From Candidatus Undinarchaeota archaeon (GTDB taxonomy: Archaea > Undinarchaeota > Undinarchaeia > Undinarchaeales > UBA543), in contig CAZMMZ010000011.1 of the NCBI GenBank assembly GCA_964567575.1, positions 1 to 14,713 of the forward strand: a stretch of 14,713 nucleotides of DNA. Direction: 5' to 3'. A program made the position numbers and the translations under genes. The notes below the pieces were generated by a model, which saw only the letters and a program-made list of their open reading frames with translations, did no database searches and was not told the DNA's origin. Of the stretch, positions 2,603 to 14,567 are shown one piece after another; within the stretch, counting starts at the first letter, position 1, and each line of letters opens with the position of its first letter.

Positions 2603-2929
2603 ATGGAACTTAAAACCATCATCATTATTTTTGTAATACTAATTGCACTTGGTGCAGCTGCTTTTTTCTTCAGCAGTAATACTGGATTTGTCGGCAAGTT
2701 TACAGAAGCAGCTGGCTTTGATTCTGTTGAAAAAAATTGTTATGACGTAGAAGATAATGACGGAGATACTTTTGTAGATTGTTCAGATCCTGACTGCAAT
2801 GAAAAATCCTGCGATGCAACTGGTGGATGTCTTTGTATAAATCGAAAAGCAAAAGAAGTTAGATGCTGGGATAACAAAGATAATGATCATGATGGAAAAG
2901 TAGACAACGATGATCCAAACTGCATCTAA
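2603..2929 (+). CDS. Small membrane-anchored/secreted Cys- and Asp-rich protein with two C-x-D-x2-DNDxDGxxD-x2-DPxC-type repeats
   Basis: N-terminal hydrophobic helix (IIIIFVILIALGAAAFFF). Repeats CYDVEDNDGDTFVDCSDPDC and CWDNKDNDHDGKVDNDDPNC; 8 Cys in total. Confidence 0.85.
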   Translation: MELKTIIIIFVILIALGAAAFFFSSNTGFVGKFTEAAGFDSVEKNCYDVEDNDGDTFVDCSDPDCNEKSCDATGGCLCINRKAKEVRCWDNKDNDHDGKVDNDDPNCI

Positions 2930-2935
2930 GTTAAA

Positions 2936-2943
2936 TTTAAATA
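2936..2943 (+). promoter_or_regulatory. TATA box (TTTAAATA) for the poly-Cys leader ORF / tRNA-Cys transcript
   Basis: Consensus archaeal TATA beginning 32 nt before the ATG at 2968, the same spacing seen at other gene starts in this window. Confidence 0.7.
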
Positions 2944-2967
2944 CTACTAACTTTATTCCTTAAATCA

Positions 2968-3009
2968 ATGAAATCTAAAACCTTTGACTGTTGTTGCTGT
3001 TGTCAATAA
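2968..3009 (+). CDS. Poly-cysteine leader peptide MKSKTFDCCCCCQ (13 aa), candidate attenuator uORF
   Basis: ATG AAA TCT AAA ACC TTT GAC TGT TGT TGC TGT TGT CAA TAA. It has five consecutive Cys codons, its own TATA box at leaderless spacing, and ends 61 nt upstream of tRNA-Cys. Confidence 0.8.
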   Translation: MKSKTFDCCCCCQ

Positions 3010-3024
3010 GACAATCATAGGTTA

Positions 3025-3062
3025 CCTTCTTTTTCAAAAATTTCTTTACTAGTGACTTTTTT
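3025..3062 (+). terminator. Oligo-T tracts (CCTTCTTTTT 3025-3034; TTTTTT 3057-3062) between the leader ORF and tRNA: candidate conditional terminator
   Basis: Pyrimidine/T-rich runs typical of archaeal termination signals lie directly after the uORF stop. Confidence 0.45.
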
Positions 3063-3070
3063 AAAAGATT

Positions 3071-3143
3071 GCAGGGATAGCAAAACTCGGTTATGCGCGC
3101 GCCTGCAGAGCGCATGATGGGGGTTCAAATCCCCCTCCCTGCT
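3071..3143 (+). tRNA. tRNA-Cys(GCA), intronless, no encoded CCA
   Basis: Acceptor stem GCAGGGA/TCCCTGC, anticodon loop CT-GCA-GA (GCA at 3105-3107), T-arm GGGGG-TTCAAAT-CCCCC, and discriminator U73 as in tRNA-Cys. Confidence 0.97.
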
Positions 3144-3156
3144 TCATTTTAAAGTA

Positions 3157-3164
3157 TTTAAGTA
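3157..3164 (+). promoter_or_regulatory. Candidate TATA box (TTTAAGTA) for cysS
   Basis: It begins 32 nt before the cysS ATG and is preceded by AAAGTA. Confidence 0.5.
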
Positions 3165-3188
3165 AGTAATCTATAAACAGGTAATCAG

Positions 3189-4667
3189 ATGACTCTAAAA
3201 CTTTACAACACCTTAACCAGGAAAAAAGAAATTTTTAAGCCGCTCGAGCCTGGTAAAATTAAGATGTATGTCTGTGGGCCAACTGTTTATGATTATGCAC
3301 ATCTTGGACATGCACGTGCGTATGTGTCTTTTGATATTGTTAATCGATATTTACGATATAAAGATTTCAAAGTTACGTATGTGCAAAACATAACTGATAT
3401 TGAAGATAAAATTATCAAGCGAGCGCAGGAGGGGAAAATCCCCCCGCTCGAGCTTTCTGAAAAATTTGCTCAAGAATTTAATACAGATATGGATGCTCTT
3501 GGAATCCAAAAACCTGACTTCCAACCAAAAGCAACTGAAACAATCAAGGAAATGGTTGAGGTTATCAAAGGTCTGATTGAGAAAGGGTTTGCATATGAAG
3601 TGCAAGGTGATGTTTACTTTTCAGTTTCCAAATTTAAGAATTATAATAAATTATCCGGAATGAATTTGGATGAAATGGAATCTGGAAAACGCATTGAAGT
3701 TTCTCAACTGAAAGATGAGCCTCTTGATTTTGCTCTTTGGAAAAAAGCAAAAACCGGGGAAATTTCTTGGGATTCTCCTTGGGGTAAGGGCCGACCTGGT
3801 TGGCATATTGAATGTTCTGCAATGTCAATGAAATATCTTGGAGAAACAATTGATATTCATGGTGGTGGGCAAGATTTAATTTTCCCCCACCACTCAAATG
3901 AAATTGCTCAAAGCGAATGTTATACTGGAAAGAAGTTTGTGAAATATTGGGTACACAATGGATTTGTAACAGTTAACAAAGCAAAGATGAGCAAATCCCT
4001 AAAGAATTTTTCAACAATTCGAGAACTTCTAAAGCGATATGATGCAAGCACATTGCGATTCTTCCTTCTTTCAACACATTACCGATCACAAATTGATTTT
4101 GCAGATATTTATTTGGAACAAGCAAAAACAAATCTGAATAAATTGCTTAATACTATTAATAATATAAAGCACGCACTTGGTGTTGTTGCAAATGAAAAAG
4201 AAACAGCAAATGATAAAAAAGTTGTAAAGGATATTGCTCGAATTAAAAAAGAATTGCTTGCAGCACTTGATGATGATTTTAATACAAGTATTGCTCTTGC
4301 AAAACTTTTCGAATTAGCAAAGCTTGCAAACAAATACATTGGTGAAAAACATACAAGTAAAGTTCTTAGAAAATTCCTTGAAGAATTTGAAGATCTTGAT
4401 ACGATTTTTAATTTGTTTAATCCTGCAGAGCCGCAAGTAACTGAAGAAATTGTGGATTCTCTTACAAAACTTGTTAAAGATTTGAAAGATGATAAAACCA
4501 AATTCAAAACGTTTGGCGATTTAATGGAATTAGTTATTGAAATCCGAGATCAAGCGAGGACTAATAAGGATTATGATAAATCAGATAGAATCCGAAACGA
4601 GCTTGACAAGTTTGGGATTATTTTAGAAGATACAAAAAAAGGCGTTAAGTGGAAATTAAAACGATGA
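3189..4667 (+). CDS. cysS: Cysteine--tRNA ligase
   Basis: Motifs [14 protein letters not shown] (HIGH), [43 protein letters not shown] and the C-terminal SDRIRNEL...GIILED. Confidence 0.99.
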
Positions 4668-4812: not shown

Positions 4813-6558
4813 ATGACTAAAGTTTCAAGAATTCATCATAAATGCAAACATTGCGAAAAAAAACTCCACCCAACTTCAGACACTTATTATAAGTGTGATG
4901 GATGCGGTGGTATAGTTTGTGATTCCTGTCACAATCAACACGAAGGAAAAGATTTGTGCAAAAATTGTCATCACAAAGCTACAAACAAAATCGCAGGATT
5001 CTCCGCAGGACATATTAAAATCGGAGCATTTGTTGGAGCTCTTTTAATTCTTGCAATTTTCTTTACATGGTTTTCAAATACTGGAGTAGCATCCCCAACT
5101 GGAGCATTAATCAGTAATTTCCAAGACAATTCAGCTGACGCTTCTCTTGATCTTTTTGTTATGAGTCAGTGTCCTTATGGAACTCAAGCTGAAGATCTTG
5201 TAATGCCTATTGTTGAAAAATTCGGTTCTGATATAAACTTCAACTTATACTTTATTGCAAACCCTACTGGTGATGGTTTCACAAGTTTGCACGGCCAGCC
5301 AGAAGTTGATGAAAATATGAGGCAACTTTGTATTATTAAAAACAATCCTGAAAAATTCTTTGATTATCTAAAATCATTCAATCCTAATTACAGAAATGCA
5401 GAAGAATCATTTGCAGATGCTGCAGCTGAAGTTGGAATTGATGCTGAAGCCATAATTTCTTGTGTAGAAAGCGATGAAGGTAAAGCATTATTCACAGAAA
5501 ATATTAAGAAATCTAATGAGCTTGGTATCGGTGGTTCACCAACTTTCTATATTAATGGTGAGAAATATTCTGGCTCCCGAAGTGAACAAGGAATTACCGA
5601 AACACTTTGTCAAGCAATCCCAGATTCAGATATCTGTGAAAACATTGAACCAGCTGATCCAGTTTTCTTAACAGTAGTAAATGATCTTGATTGCGAACTT
5701 TGTGATTCCTCTTCACTTGTTTCACAATTGAAAGGTATGGTTCCAGGTTTGAAAGTAGAAACAATTTCTTATGATTCAGAAGAAGGCAGTGCAATTCTTA
5801 ATGCATTTGGTGCAACTGCTCTCCCAGTATTAGTTTTTGATTCAAGTATTGAAGCTTCATCTGGTTTTGCAGCACTTCAATCATATCTTGTAAAACAAGG
5901 TGACATATCCATGCTTCGTGTTCCTGGTGTAAAACAAATTAACAGAGATGAGCAGGAAAATTCAGTTGATCTTTTCATAATGAGTCAATGTCCATACGGA
6001 ACAATGGCACAAGGAACTTTAAAAGAAGTAGCAGAAGCAATGCCAGATCTTGAATGGGATATTTATTTCATTGCAAATGATAAAGGCGACGGAACATTTG
6101 ACAGCTTGCACGGACAGGCAGAAGTTGATGAGAACATTGAACAAGTTTGTATTCTAAAATATGCAAGAAACAAATACTTTGATTACACAACTGCATACAT
6201 TGCAGAATACGATGCATGTGGCGCAACAATGCAAGAAACACAAGATTATGCTGCATATTCACAATGCCTTGAAGATATTGATAGTTATCCATTAATGAAA
6301 AAAGTTGGAATAAGTGATTCTAAAATCAGAGCATGTGCTGAAGGAACTGAAGGTATCAGTTTGTTTACTGAAAATATAGCTCTTGGGAATGAACTTGAAA
6401 TTGGTTCTTCCCCAACATTCTTGTTTAACAATGTTATACAAGGAAGTGGTTCATCTGCTGAGCAACTCAAACAAAGCATCTGCAGTATGAACGCTGACAT
6501 GGGTGGTTGCGATCAGGTATTGAGTCAAAATCAGGCAGCAGCAAGCGGTCAGTGTTAA
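4813..6558 (+). CDS. Membrane-anchored thiol-oxidoreductase-like protein: N-terminal Zn finger, TM helix, GILT/DsbA-like domain, CxxC thioredoxin domain, second GILT/DsbA-like domain
   Basis: Four N-terminal CxxC pairs, then TM IGAFVGALLILAIFFTWF. Duplicated LF(V/I)MSQCPYG...SLHGQ(P/A)EVDEN..Q.C...(G/S)SPTF units flank a central DCELC...LPVLVF domain. Confidence 0.85.
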   Translation: MTKVSRIHHKCKHCEKKLHPTSDTYYKCDGCGGIVCDSCHNQHEGKDLCKNCHHKATNKIAGFSAGHIKIGAFVGALLILAIFFTWFSNTGVASPTGALISNFQDNSADASLDLFVMSQCPYGTQAEDLVMPIVEKFGSDINFNLYFIANPTGDGFTSLHGQPEVDENMRQLCIIKNNPEKFFDYLKSFNPNYRNAEESFADAAAEVGIDAEAIISCVESDEGKALFTENIKKSNELGIGGSPTFYINGEKYSGSRSEQGITETLCQAIPDSDICENIEPADPVFLTVVNDLDCELCDSSSLVSQLKGMVPGLKVETISYDSEEGSAILNAFGATALPVLVFDSSIEASSGFAALQSYLVKQGDISMLRVPGVKQINRDEQENSVDLFIMSQCPYGTMAQGTLKEVAEAMPDLEWDIYFIANDKGDGTFDSLHGQAEVDENIEQVCILKYARNKYFDYTTAYIAEYDACGATMQETQDYAAYSQCLEDIDSYPLMKKVGISDSKIRACAEGTEGISLFTENIALGNELEIGSSPTFLFNNVIQGSGSSAEQLKQSICSMNADMGGCDQVLSQNQAAASGQC

Positions 6559-8363: not shown

Positions 8364-9410
8364 ATGGAAGATTATGTAGGGGTAAAGTTTAAACCAAAAC
8401 TAACTCATAAGGGAATTCGACACAATTCTACAAAAGAAATAATTACTGCAGGTAAGAAGCTTGATGCAGAAGGAATGGTTTTTGTAAACGCAGGAAACAT
8501 TTCAGCTAAAATTAAAAATGCTTTTATCATAACTGCTGCAGGGTCAGAATTAAATTCACTTGATTCTAATGATTTTGCAAAAGTTACTGCATGCGATCTT
8601 AAGCATCGTGTTGTTATTGCTGAAGGAAAAAAAGATCCATCATCTGAATCCATAATGCATCACTTGATTTACAAAACTCATCCAAATGTAACTGCAGTTG
8701 TTCATGTTCATAGCGGCGCATTTTTGAATGAAAGTAAAATTATGAATTCTGGTTTTCTTTCAACAAACACATTCATTGAATATGGAACTCTTGAACTTGC
8801 TTATAATGTTGTTAAAAATTTAGGCAAAGAAAATTTTATTATTATTAAAGGTCATGGTGCTATTGCTCTTGGTTCATCTGTTAAAGAAGCAACTGATTTA
8901 ATGATTAATAATTATCGTTTACTCAAAGGGCTTCCTATTAGATTAACTGATCAGCCAATTTCTCGAAAAGTTAAATCAGTTGATTCTGAATTGATTGAGG
9001 ATGTAAAATCTGAAGAATCGGAACATGATGAAAATCTTGAAGAATTTTTGTCTGAAGAAATCAAAAAGCCCGAACCAGAAGAGCCACAAGTTCAAGAAGA
9101 ACCAGTGGTTCTTGAAGAGGGTTTTGAAGAAAAACTTGGTGAAGAAGAACCTGAGGAAGAACCAGCTGAAGAAAAAGTTGAATTACCATATGAAGAAGTT
9201 CAACTTCCTCCAAGAAAAAAACTTTCAATTAAATTCCCAAAATTAAGAGTTAAATTAAGAGGTTTTACTTCAACTGTTATTTGTCCAACTTGTGGAACCA
9301 AAAAAAGGTTTGCTGCAAAGAGTTGTGATAATTGTGGTTACTTTTATGGCATTGATAAAATTTCTTATAACACCAGTAATTTTATAAAGATTGAAAAGAA
9401 ACAGAAATGA
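8364..9410 (+). CDS. Class II aldolase/adducin-family domain fused to an acidic linker and C-terminal zinc ribbon
   Basis: Aldolase motifs AGNISAK, PSSESIMH, VVHVHS and KGHGAI. An E/P-rich region follows, then CPTCG-x8-CDNCG. Confidence 0.88.
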   Translation: MEDYVGVKFKPKLTHKGIRHNSTKEIITAGKKLDAEGMVFVNAGNISAKIKNAFIITAAGSELNSLDSNDFAKVTACDLKHRVVIAEGKKDPSSESIMHHLIYKTHPNVTAVVHVHSGAFLNESKIMNSGFLSTNTFIEYGTLELAYNVVKNLGKENFIIIKGHGAIALGSSVKEATDLMINNYRLLKGLPIRLTDQPISRKVKSVDSELIEDVKSEESEHDENLEEFLSEEIKKPEPEEPQVQEEPVVLEEGFEEKLGEEEPEEEPAEEKVELPYEEVQLPPRKKLSIKFPKLRVKLRGFTSTVICPTCGTKKRFAAKSCDNCGYFYGIDKISYNTSNFIKIEKKQK

Positions 9411-13313: not shown

Positions 13314-14567
13314 ATGAAAAAAATAATAGCAATTTTCGTTTTGATTTTCTTAATGTTGTTGCCATGCGCTTATGCAGGTACTGGTCTTACACTTACTGGT
13401 CCGTACGATGATGGAGAAAGTGATAACATCATTGTCCGCGTCTACGCAACTGAGGTTACAAAGTTTGATGTAGCAACATTTACTATTGATTACGACTTGA
13501 ATGCTCTTCAATTCGTATCAGCTGTACCTGGTTCCTTTTCGCCTAAAGCTAGTGTTGTTGAAAATATTGAAAACGGAAAGGTTGTTGTTAATGTTCCTGG
13601 TTTCCAAGGGATTTCAGGATCTGGAATTATTGCAAAGCTTTCTTTTACTCCTTCTGCGGAATCTTCAATACAATTAGAGGAGATTCTTCTTGGTACTAAT
13701 TTAGGTAAGAAAATCGAGGCTCCACTAATCAGCAATTTAATTTCTTATGATCCTAATGCGGATCTTCTTATTGAAGCTGAAGTGGATGATGCTTTTGTAG
13801 ATCCTAATGGGGATGATTCTGATGATAATGTTCCTGGTGATGTTGAAGAGGATATTGTTCCTGATGACGATTCTGATGATGATGTTATTGTTGACGATTC
13901 TGATGACGATGATGCTACTGACGATTCTGATGATGATTTAACTGAGAGTTCAACTGATGATAATAGAGGTACTCCACGGTCATCTCCTGACCCAACACCT
14001 TCTCCAAGTGTTCCTAGTAATCCTAATGTTCCAACTACCCCTGCAGTAGGAACTCCTAGTGCTGCACCAGTTCCAACTTCTGGTGATTCTGGAACTGATG
14101 TTAGTGGAGAAGATACTGTTGGGTCTCAAGCAAAAGGAGAAGGTATAATTTCAAAAGTAGCTACTAATCCAATTTTAATTATTTCTTTAATAATAATTGT
14201 TCTTGGTGTTGGAGGATTTTTCACATACAAACACTTTATGAGAATTAAGAAAGAAAAAAGTGAAAAGAATGATTTCCAAAATAAATTGCAAATGCCTGGT
14301 AGTGTTTCTACTGGCAAAAAGCCAGTGTCTGCTCAACCTTCTGTAAAGCCAAAACCATTAATGCCACTTAAACCTGTTGCAAAACCTATACCAACACAAT
14401 CTGCTAAACCAGCACCAGTTAAACCAGTTCCAACTGGCGATCCTGGTATTGATTATATTAAATCTTGCAGAGCGCAAGGATTTACAGAGGATCAAATCAA
14501 AATAGAATTGAAAAAACAAGGTTGGTCTGATCAAGATATATTGCAAAAGATGGTTAAAGCAAAATAG
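13314..14567 (+). CDS. Type I membrane protein: signal peptide, cohesin-like domain, Asp-rich and Pro/Ser/Thr-rich stalk, TM helix, Pro/Lys-rich cytoplasmic tail with a small helical C-terminal domain
   Basis: Signal MKKIIAIFVLIFLMLLPCAYA. Cohesin-like ATFTIDYDLNALQFVSAVPGSF...SGSGIIAKLSF. DDSDDD repeats, then TM ILIISLIIIVLGVGGFFTY and C-terminal YIKSCRAQGFTEDQIKIELKKQGWSDQDI. Confidence 0.85.
   Translation: MKKIIAIFVLIFLMLLPCAYAGTGLTLTGPYDDGESDNIIVRVYATEVTKFDVATFTIDYDLNALQFVSAVPGSFSPKASVVENIENGKVVVNVPGFQGISGSGIIAKLSFTPSAESSIQLEEILLGTNLGKKIEAPLISNLISYDPNADLLIEAEVDDAFVDPNGDDSDDNVPGDVEEDIVPDDDSDDDVIVDDSDDDDATDDSDDDLTESSTDDNRGTPRSSPDPTPSPSVPSNPNVPTTPAVGTPSAAPVPTSGDSGTDVSGEDTVGSQAKGEGIISKVATNPILIISLIIIVLGVGGFFTYKHFMRIKKEKSEKNDFQNKLQMPGSVSTGKKPVSAQPSVKPKPLMPLKPVAKPIPTQSAKPAPVKPVPTGDPGIDYIKSCRAQGFTEDQIKIELKKQGWSDQDILQKMVKAK

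Follow-up and report, generated by a model that had tools for sequence, protein, structure and literature searches.

A conserved cysteine-codon leader gene upstream of tRNA-Cys in Undinarchaeota, a candidate ribosome-based sensor of charged tRNA

The 14,713-nucleotide (nt) stretch of DNA analysed here (hereafter the window) is contig 11 (CAZMMZ010000011.1) of assembly GCA_964567575.1 of a Candidatus Undinarchaeota archaeon, a 745-kb, 18-contig, 82%-complete genome with a G+C content of 36%. Between a TATA box and its tRNA-Cys gene the window carries a very short open reading frame (ORF) that ends in a run of five cysteine codons, and counterparts of this leader ORF were found before tRNA-Cys in related genomes. 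As a conserved cognate-codon leader gene it is a known kind of switch, here in an archaeon and with a tRNA gene as its target. Judged by comparison of sequences, the ORF very probably lets the ribosome sense charged tRNA, and this was the only coherent reading because leader ORFs with runs of isoleucine or valine codons precede ileS and valS in the same genomes. We also consider it reasonably likely that the leader gene acts in cis, measuring Cys-tRNA(Cys) and gating termination at U-tracts before tRNA-Cys by means of a predicted hairpin, P1.

Ribosome-mediated attenuation is a textbook bacterial mechanism that needs coupled transcription and translation together with hairpin-dependent terminators. 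Archaea couple transcription and translation but terminate by U-tracts and the aCPSF1/FttA nuclease. Ribosome-based control by charged tRNA has until now been described in bacteria alone, and for no tRNA gene.

Results

A leader ORF with a terminal Cys run precedes the only tRNA-Cys gene found in the genome

The elements of this locus were placed as follows.

2936–2943, forward strand: TATA box of the leader transcript (consensus octamer; 24 nt from the end of the box to the ATG)
2968–3009, forward strand: leader ORF of 13 codons, putatively leaderless (M-K-S-K-T-F-D-C-C-C-C-C-Q-stop; ATG at 2968, stop codon TAA)
2989–3003, forward strand: Cys run, TGT TGT TGC TGT TGT, the proposed sensing site
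3027–3062, forward strand: U-rich region with T-tracts at 3030–3034, 3041–3047 and 3057–3062, the proposed zone of regulated termination
3071–3143, forward strand: tRNA-Cys(GCA), the proposed regulated gene (ARAGORN; Rfam, 58 bits)
3156–3163, forward strand: TATA-like box, putatively the own promoter of cysS (25 nt ahead of the cysS ATG, the local leaderless spacing)
3189–4667, forward strand: cysS, cysteine--tRNA ligase, possibly reached by read-through (PF01406; TIGR00435, 575 bits against a cut-off of 340)

A preliminary description of this DNA had picked out the TATA box, the ORF, the Cys run, the T-tracts, tRNA-Cys and cysS, and each of these was confirmed in place. It had also likened the spacing between TATA box and ATG to that of other first genes in the window, which was borne out by the 24 nt measured here and the 22–25 nt at three other leaderless genes (starting at 2603, at 13314 and, on the minus strand, at 2509). 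Because this geometry matches that of the local leaderless genes, the leader transcript should begin at or next to the ATG. The genome encodes TBP (the TBP profile matched only archaeal controls) and has intron-bearing tRNAs. The ORF consists of seven variable codons, five Cys codons, a Gln codon and the stop, and lies 61 nt upstream of tRNA-Cys, of which a single gene was found in the genome.

Runs of TGY codons were counted on both strands of the 745-kb genome, giving two of at least five codons and twelve of at least four. Every other such run was situated in a long ORF that uses another frame; among runs of at least four TGY codons, the one in the leader was the only intergenic one. From the genome-wide count, simple arithmetic gives ~1.5e-4 expected five-codon runs in the 110 nt preceding the sole tRNA-Cys. 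Other small frames across the leader region, compared by eye with relatives, either overlapped the tRNA in antisense or had no conserved start.

The Cys leader is conserved in frame, form and position

The comparison set comprised the 17 genomes of the phylum, including that of the window (G000), and tRNA-Cys was found in 12 of them. The leader preceded tRNA-Cys in nine of the 12, namely G000, G001 and G002 (family f1), G003 (f2), G004 (f3), G005, G008 and G011 (f4) and G016 (f9), and had the same form in the carriers: a TATA box, 22–25 nt, an ATG, and an ORF of 9–13 codons in which 3–7 Cys codons are followed by 0–2 codons and the stop. A further Cys leader was recovered from a metagenome, in another archaeal lineage (L202; 56% G+C), where four codons precede seven Cys codons and the TATA box lies 22 nt ahead of the ATG; together with the nine it makes up the ten Cys leaders referred to below, which sit 49–149 nt upstream of tRNA-Cys. 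The preliminary description had made its reading depend on conservation in relatives, and the ORF, its frame, the terminal Cys run, the TATA spacing and the place before tRNA-Cys were all kept, across four families of the order, one more family of the phylum and the metagenomic lineage. The three genomes of family f5 had no leader and carried a canonical TATA box ~44 nt upstream of tRNA-Cys.

The distance from the ATG to the run was 12, 15, 18 or 21 nt and always in frame, and the leader peptides, whose N-terminal residues vary, had nothing in common outside the Cys run. Synonymous variation within the runs, which the preliminary description had proposed to look for in relatives, was present: TGT and TGC were used in a ratio of 31:17 over the ten leaders, near the genome's 60:40. 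Selection therefore appears to act on the amino-acid reading and not on one nucleotide string. Start, stop and frame were conserved, insertions and deletions were multiples of three and synonymous codon use was genome-like, and these are indirect signs that the ORF may be translated. A strain whose cysteinyl-tRNA synthetase (CysRS) protein is identical to that of the window (L217) had a leader of the same length and frame with six Cys codons and the stop directly after them. Between positions 735–885 of L217 and 2925–3075 of the window the differences were patchwise, with the apical hairpin altered along with the run and the TATA-to-ATG spacer 1 nt shorter in L217. The contig of the window itself was also encountered in JGI 3300048645 and 3300036767 and in ENA ERZ27245254.

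A search for 3–4 Cys codons 30–90 nt before an archaeal-type tRNA-Cys matched 8 of the 17 phylum genomes. Outside the phylum, the same pattern matched none of 384 sampled archaeal genomes with a gap of 30–60 nt and none of 234 with a gap of 60–90 nt, and the reversed-pattern control gave a total of one hit over the two; these searches covered samples of genomes with one tRNA pattern and are not proof of absence. A looser pattern of Cys codons and tRNA-Cys, scanned over contigs, yielded nothing relevant among the matches listed (120 loci), which reflected CAG/CTG repeats of GC-rich bacteria.

These comparisons bear directly on whether the run could be a TGY microsatellite that is open by accident and near the tRNA by accident. 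Short ORFs are abundant in AT-rich genomes, and the fold of the G000 leader taken as a single sequence was not significant (see below), both of which such an origin would accommodate. It does not account for the sole intergenic Cys run of the genome, for a leader that was kept across families although its flanks changed, or for the lack of matches before tRNA-Cys in the sampled archaeal genomes outside the phylum. We regard the chance reading as refuted by the comparative data and its remaining probability as negligible.

Ile and Val leaders precede ileS and valS

A genome-wide search for ORFs closing in a homo-codon run, with a TATA box placed as for a leaderless gene, yielded two further leaders whose downstream gene is cognate.

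G000 contig 2, ~8410–8448 (L221/L223), reverse strand: Ile leader of 12 codons (six mixed codons, five Ile codons of which three are ATA, an Arg codon, stop)
G000 contig 8, ~41270–41300 (L222/L241), reverse strand: Val leader of nine codons, the last three being Val

The Ile leader lies 85 nt ahead of ileS (TIGR00392, 935 bits), after which comes tRNA-Ile(UAU). The Val leader lies 62 nt ahead of valS (NF009687, 1082 bits), and inspection by eye placed a five-T tract 25 nt past its stop. Ile leaders were present in 10 of the 17 phylum genomes, exactly those of families f1–f4, and Val leaders in f1 and f3, that is in the three genomes of the genus and in G004, which has a version with four Val codons. 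Two other candidates were rejected: a TGY-like run before tRNA-Pro belongs to a real small protein gene, in which it is read as Ala/Val, and an Ile-run ORF near 65145 of contig 2 has an unrelated gene downstream and was set aside as chance.

Thus, for Cys, Ile and Val the codon run of the leader matched the downstream tRNA or synthetase in one genome and in its relatives. The earlier proposal that the cognate-codon run senses Cys-tRNA(Cys) is supported both by the conservation described above and by the Ile and Val leaders before ileS and valS. Codon choice in the Ile leaders was strongly skewed, ATA making up 39 of their 49 Ile codons (80%) compared with 23% of the Ile codons in the long ORFs of the genome. 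This preference, together with the presence of tRNA-Ile(UAU) in the same cluster, suggests that the Ile leaders sense the AUA-reading tRNA of their own cluster, and hence sense at the level of the codon rather than of the amino acid.

The Ile and Val leaders also bear on two readings in which the Cys codons do something other than report on charging, namely encode a poly-Cys micropeptide that binds metal or sulfur or, left untranslated, bind the anticodon of tRNA-Cys as a T-box would. Cysteines clustered at a C-terminus could bind metals, and Cys codons are complementary to the GCA anticodon, but ORFs of the same design with Ile and Val runs stand before ileS and valS. The peptide is conserved in nothing but its run, and in every lineage the ATG is in frame and at leaderless spacing and the stop comes 0–2 codons past the run, both of which would be needless in an untranslated signal. 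Taken together we hold these two readings to be very improbable. Because three amino acids each match their own synthetase or tRNA, the tiny metal- or sulfur-binding peptide that the preliminary description had offered as its alternative drops out, as does chance. No Rfam family matched the window's leader, and a search of 2900–3200 at E ≤ 1, which yielded nothing beyond the tRNA and, on the other strand, two plastid hits judged to be chance, gave no T-box; given also the conserved in-frame ATG and stop, a T-box-like element was rejected.

The Cys run and the stop of the ORF lie within a predicted hairpin whose arms covary

Two hairpins were predicted between the beginning of the ORF and the tRNA.

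2979–3023, forward strand: hairpin P1 (predicted in both the minimum free energy (MFE) and the centroid fold), 2979–2983 and 2985–2987 pairing with 3015–3017 and 3019–3023
3028–3068, forward strand: hairpin P2 (predicted in the MFE fold), 3028–3033 pairing with 3063–3068

P1 is capped by an apical stem (3000–3004 with 3010–3014) that holds the stop codon in its loop. Briefly, the strongest pairing of the first part of the ORF with the 31 nt that follow the stop was scored against 1000 shuffles. In the window's leader this duplex reached -10.9 kcal/mol, compared with -4.0 ± 1.8 in the shuffles (p = 0.005), and eight of the ten Cys leaders and all ten Ile leaders, 18 of 20 in total, had a P1 better than shuffles (p ≤ 0.032), with arms that differ in sequence. 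The arms change between lineages but stay complementary, in a compensatory manner: the three Ile leaders of family f2 had three different nine-base arm pairs, and two different arm pairs were seen in the Cys leaders of genus g1. The evidence for covariation consists of helices predicted sequence by sequence and of these shuffle tests. RNAalifold returned no consensus structure for the MAFFT alignment of nine Cys leaders because the helix arms occupy different positions in different lineages, and the P2 segments were aligned out of register.

P2 has a U/A-rich loop with a conserved motif around 3036–3055. Its topology was found in 8 of the 10 Cys leaders, with differing arms that are pyrimidine-rich on one side and purine-rich on the other, G-U pairs included. 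In the Ile leaders P2 was better than shuffles at p ≤ 0.036 in 8 of 10 (range 0.002–0.07); there P1 and P2 share sequence, the 5' arm of P2 being overlapped by the outer 3' strand of P1, and may be mutually exclusive; the two folds are near-isoenergetic. P1 and P2 coexist in the window's Cys leader.

The first tract of at least four T residues starts 20 nt past the stop in the window's leader, and such a tract starts 17–25 nt past the stop in 14 of the 20 leaders (all Ile leaders, the f1 Cys leaders and L202). No GC-rich terminator stem was found in the window's Cys leader. GC-rich hairpin insertions of ~50–90 nt were seen between P2 and tRNA-Cys in L039 (G004) and inside the P2 loop of the Ile leader in L232 (G007), where they break up leaders that are otherwise conserved and AT-rich.

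Promoters of tRNA-Cys and cysS

The preliminary description held that the tRNA probably depends on the leader promoter, which was not supported here. No canonical TATA box was found 20–50 nt before tRNA-Cys in the window, but a weak A/T-rich element at 3036–3049, in the P2 loop, has a box interrupted by a C, lies 22 nt before the tRNA and may serve as the tRNA's own promoter. A TATA matrix learned by expectation maximisation from tRNA upstream regions, and polluted by the T-loops of neighbouring tRNAs, scored this element no better than background.

If the element were a promoter, leader and tRNA could be separate units: the leader transcript would end at the U-tracts, the tRNA would be made from the weak promoter in the P2 loop, and any link between them would be indirect, through promoter occlusion or a leader RNA or peptide that acts in trans. 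Consistent with this, the element combines an A-rich run with a T-rich octamer containing one C, a similar motif is conserved in families f1, f2 and f4, and three U-tracts between ORF and tRNA would amount to a strong archaeal terminator (PMC8716108). We nevertheless think separate units improbable. The box contains a C and scores at background level, albeit with a crude and uninformative matrix, and the distance from element to tRNA varies from ~19 to ~110 nt. The flanking arms vary yet stay complementary with G-U pairs, which fits RNA and not a protein-bound DNA palindrome, and in f2 ileS starts 14–15 nt past P2, which leaves little room for a separate unit.

Control of cysS by the leader was not supported either. 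Because a TATA-like octamer stands 25 nt ahead of its ATG, cysS is probably not dependent on the leader, and in three relatives (L002, L012 and L018) cysS lies ~1 kb from tRNA-Cys with another gene between, the leader staying with the tRNA.

A model for charged-tRNA feedback on tRNA-Cys

In archaea, transcription ends at U-tracts, to which the KH domains of aCPSF1 bind, and Term-seq showed no hairpin requirement at these terminators (PMC8716108). FttA is reported to act on RNA that leaves the polymerase (PMC11616081), and an aCPSF1/FttA orthologue is present in this genome (TIGR03675, 940 bits).

We propose a transcription start on the ATG or no more than a few bases from it. In the nascent RNA the Cys run and the stop would come to lie in the apical part of P1, with the first codons making its 5' strand. 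When Cys-tRNA(Cys) is plentiful, the ribosome would finish and leave, P1 would fold directly ahead of the U-tract zone, and most transcripts would end at the U-tracts, intrinsically or with the help of aCPSF1/FttA. When Cys-tRNA(Cys) is scarce, the ribosome would stall in the Cys run and, because the ORF is so short, would cover the entire 5' strand of P1. With P1 blocked, more polymerases would read through into tRNA-Cys and perhaps cysS, and RNase P would then free the tRNA from the read-through transcript. The outcome would be negative feedback of charged tRNA-Cys on tRNA-Cys synthesis, and this direction was chosen because only negative feedback is sensible for synthetase and tRNA genes.

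Several observations weigh against this model. Since archaeal terminators need no hairpin (PMC8716108), the effect of P1 on termination remains a proposal. G016 and L202 had no significant P1 of this type, and the fold of the whole G000 leader, compared with shuffles, was not significant alone (z = -1.37); the structural case is therefore comparative, not thermodynamic. P2 was no better than shuffles in any single Cys leader (p 0.06–0.78). Masking of the ribosome footprint on the Cys leader left the folds of P2 and the tRNA unchanged and disclosed no alternative pairing of the antiterminator type, and five Cys leaders (f2, f3 and f4) had no tract of at least four T at the 20–25 nt position. 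To these are added the A/T-rich element in the P2 loop, and the consideration that simple coupling, in which a ribosome at the stop touches the polymerase on the U-tract and excludes FttA, would predict the opposite direction of the switch.

Such coupling is one of two ways in which the ORF might sense Cys-tRNA(Cys) with another output; in the other, charging would affect the processing or stability of the precursor, for example through a helix that abuts the 5' end of the tRNA and hinders RNase P, or through 5'-end pairing that shields the RNA from 5'-3' exonucleases. In f1 only 2 nt separate the 3' strand of P2 from the 5' end of the tRNA, and in G005 and G008 the mRNA can pair its first eight bases, among them the start codon, with the segment immediately ahead of the tRNA. 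Structures adjacent to tRNAs are reported to inhibit RNase P in polycistronic transcripts of E. coli (PMC2241853). P2 lies at a variable distance from the tRNA (2 to ~100 nt), however, and the design of P1, U-tract and P2 also precedes ileS and valS, where RNase P is irrelevant. For reversed coupling, the 17–25 nt from stop to U-tract match the expected spacing of a polymerase on the tract and a ribosome terminating behind it, but the reversed logic amounts to positive feedback, which is physiologically senseless for synthetase genes. We rate an output of either kind as an unlikely but serious alternative, and retain negative feedback on termination as the working model.

Neither cysK/cysM (TIGR01136) nor SepRS (TIGR00470; only 49 bits) was found in the 82%-complete assembly; the organism therefore probably imports cysteine, and CysRS was the sole route to Cys-tRNA found. 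If the model is true, it describes a direct homeostatic loop in which a charged tRNA controls its own gene. In host-dependent organisms in which no cysteine synthesis genes were found, sensors of this kind may be one of the few means of regulation that remain.

Relation to known charged-tRNA switches

The closest likeness in form is to the leaderless polycysteine small ORFs of mycobacteria (Ms5788A, the 'Cys ribulon'; Canestrari et al.), which are translational attenuators (10.1101/834739). In both, the transcript starts at the start codon (as predicted here from promoter spacing), the ORF is very short with a Cys run at its 3' end, and cysteine-related genes are linked to it; both also hold the run within paired RNA, which a ribosome stalled there would unwind. 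The mycobacterial system is bacterial and translational, its Cys tract pairs with the Shine-Dalgarno sequence of the next gene, and its authors excluded termination (10.1101/834739). Here, by contrast, the host is archaeal, the hairpin is followed by U-tracts and then by a tRNA, which has no ribosome-binding site, and the Cys run in the apex of P1 pairs only locally. Homology between the two is neither shown nor expected.

In Rhodobacterales, the motif uORFC-8-2 stands upstream of cysS, and its suggested role is to increase the supply of Cys-tRNA(Cys) under low charging (Brewer et al. 2021, PMC8632094). It too is an upstream ORF with tandem Cys codons in a first stem and a U-run after it. It differs in being bacterial, in having two Cys codons (positions 14–15) and a canonical intrinsic terminator stem and in standing directly before cysS, whereas the leaders described here have 3–7 terminal Cys codons and are tied to the tRNA and not to cysS, which has a TATA-like box.

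Classical attenuators of the trpL, hisL and pheM-pheST type share the runs of cognate codons, an ORF that overlaps RNA structure and a downstream U-tract, and, as for pheST, synthetase genes would answer to their cognate amino acid (10.1101/834739). In the Cys leader, unlike these, no separate antiterminator/terminator pair was found, and the target is a tRNA gene; the archaeal polymerase also differs from the bacterial setting in terminating at U-tracts with no hairpin required and with the aid of aCPSF1/FttA (PMC8716108). The T-boxes of Firmicutes likewise place synthetase genes under control of cognate tRNA charging, and a codon in the leader sets their specificity; they bind uncharged tRNA directly and are untranslated, whereas here an in-frame ATG and stop are conserved.

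Within the literature library searched in full text, no archaeal leader-peptide attenuator was found, and no leader peptide that controls a tRNA gene. The conserved set of Cys, Ile and Val leaders in one archaeal phylum offers a concrete, testable case of how translation might regulate archaeal transcription or RNA processing. More broadly, and tentatively, since we give it slightly less than an even chance, this genome-reduced DPANN phylum may use a family of leaderless sensors (Cys, AUA-tuned Ile, and Val) that couple ribosome stalling to termination of the U-tract/aCPSF1 type and thereby adjust how much tRNA and synthetase is made. In that case no tRNA gene before tRNA-Cys would have been known to be under feedback from translation of its own codons, and the system would be the first archaeal ribosome-mediated attenuation.

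ORFs of a comparable kind were also encountered on bacterial contigs. In a metagenome, GC-rich bacterial contigs whose tRNA-Cys has an encoded CCA carried ORFs of 12–17 codons with 3–4 consecutive Cys codons 40–62 nt before tRNA-Cys (L178, L184, L188, L191, L193, L195, L198, L204, L206, L207, L208 and L210), and complementary segments were conserved in this group. Three other bacterial cases came from the same metagenome scan (L201, L213 and L215). Leader ORFs before tRNA-Cys therefore exist in bacteria too.

Genes neighbouring the leader

Directly upstream of the leader, an ORF at 2603–2929 (forward strand) encodes 108 residues rich in Cys and Asp, without a Pfam match, and has its own TATA box at leaderless spacing; a region resembling its C-terminal part precedes the leader in G001 and not in G002. 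On the reverse strand, 981–2509 holds two overlapping ThiI-related ORFs, of which the upstream one (1865–2509) has the PP-loop domain only and the downstream one (981–1868) has ferredoxin-like and THUMP domains and a partial PP-loop match. This pair may be a split or duplicated tRNA-thiolation gene. After cysS, 4813–6558 (forward strand) encodes a 581-residue protein with a DsbA/thioredoxin-like domain, and thiI, tRNA-Cys, cysS and the DsbA-like gene therefore form a thiol-related cluster at this locus.

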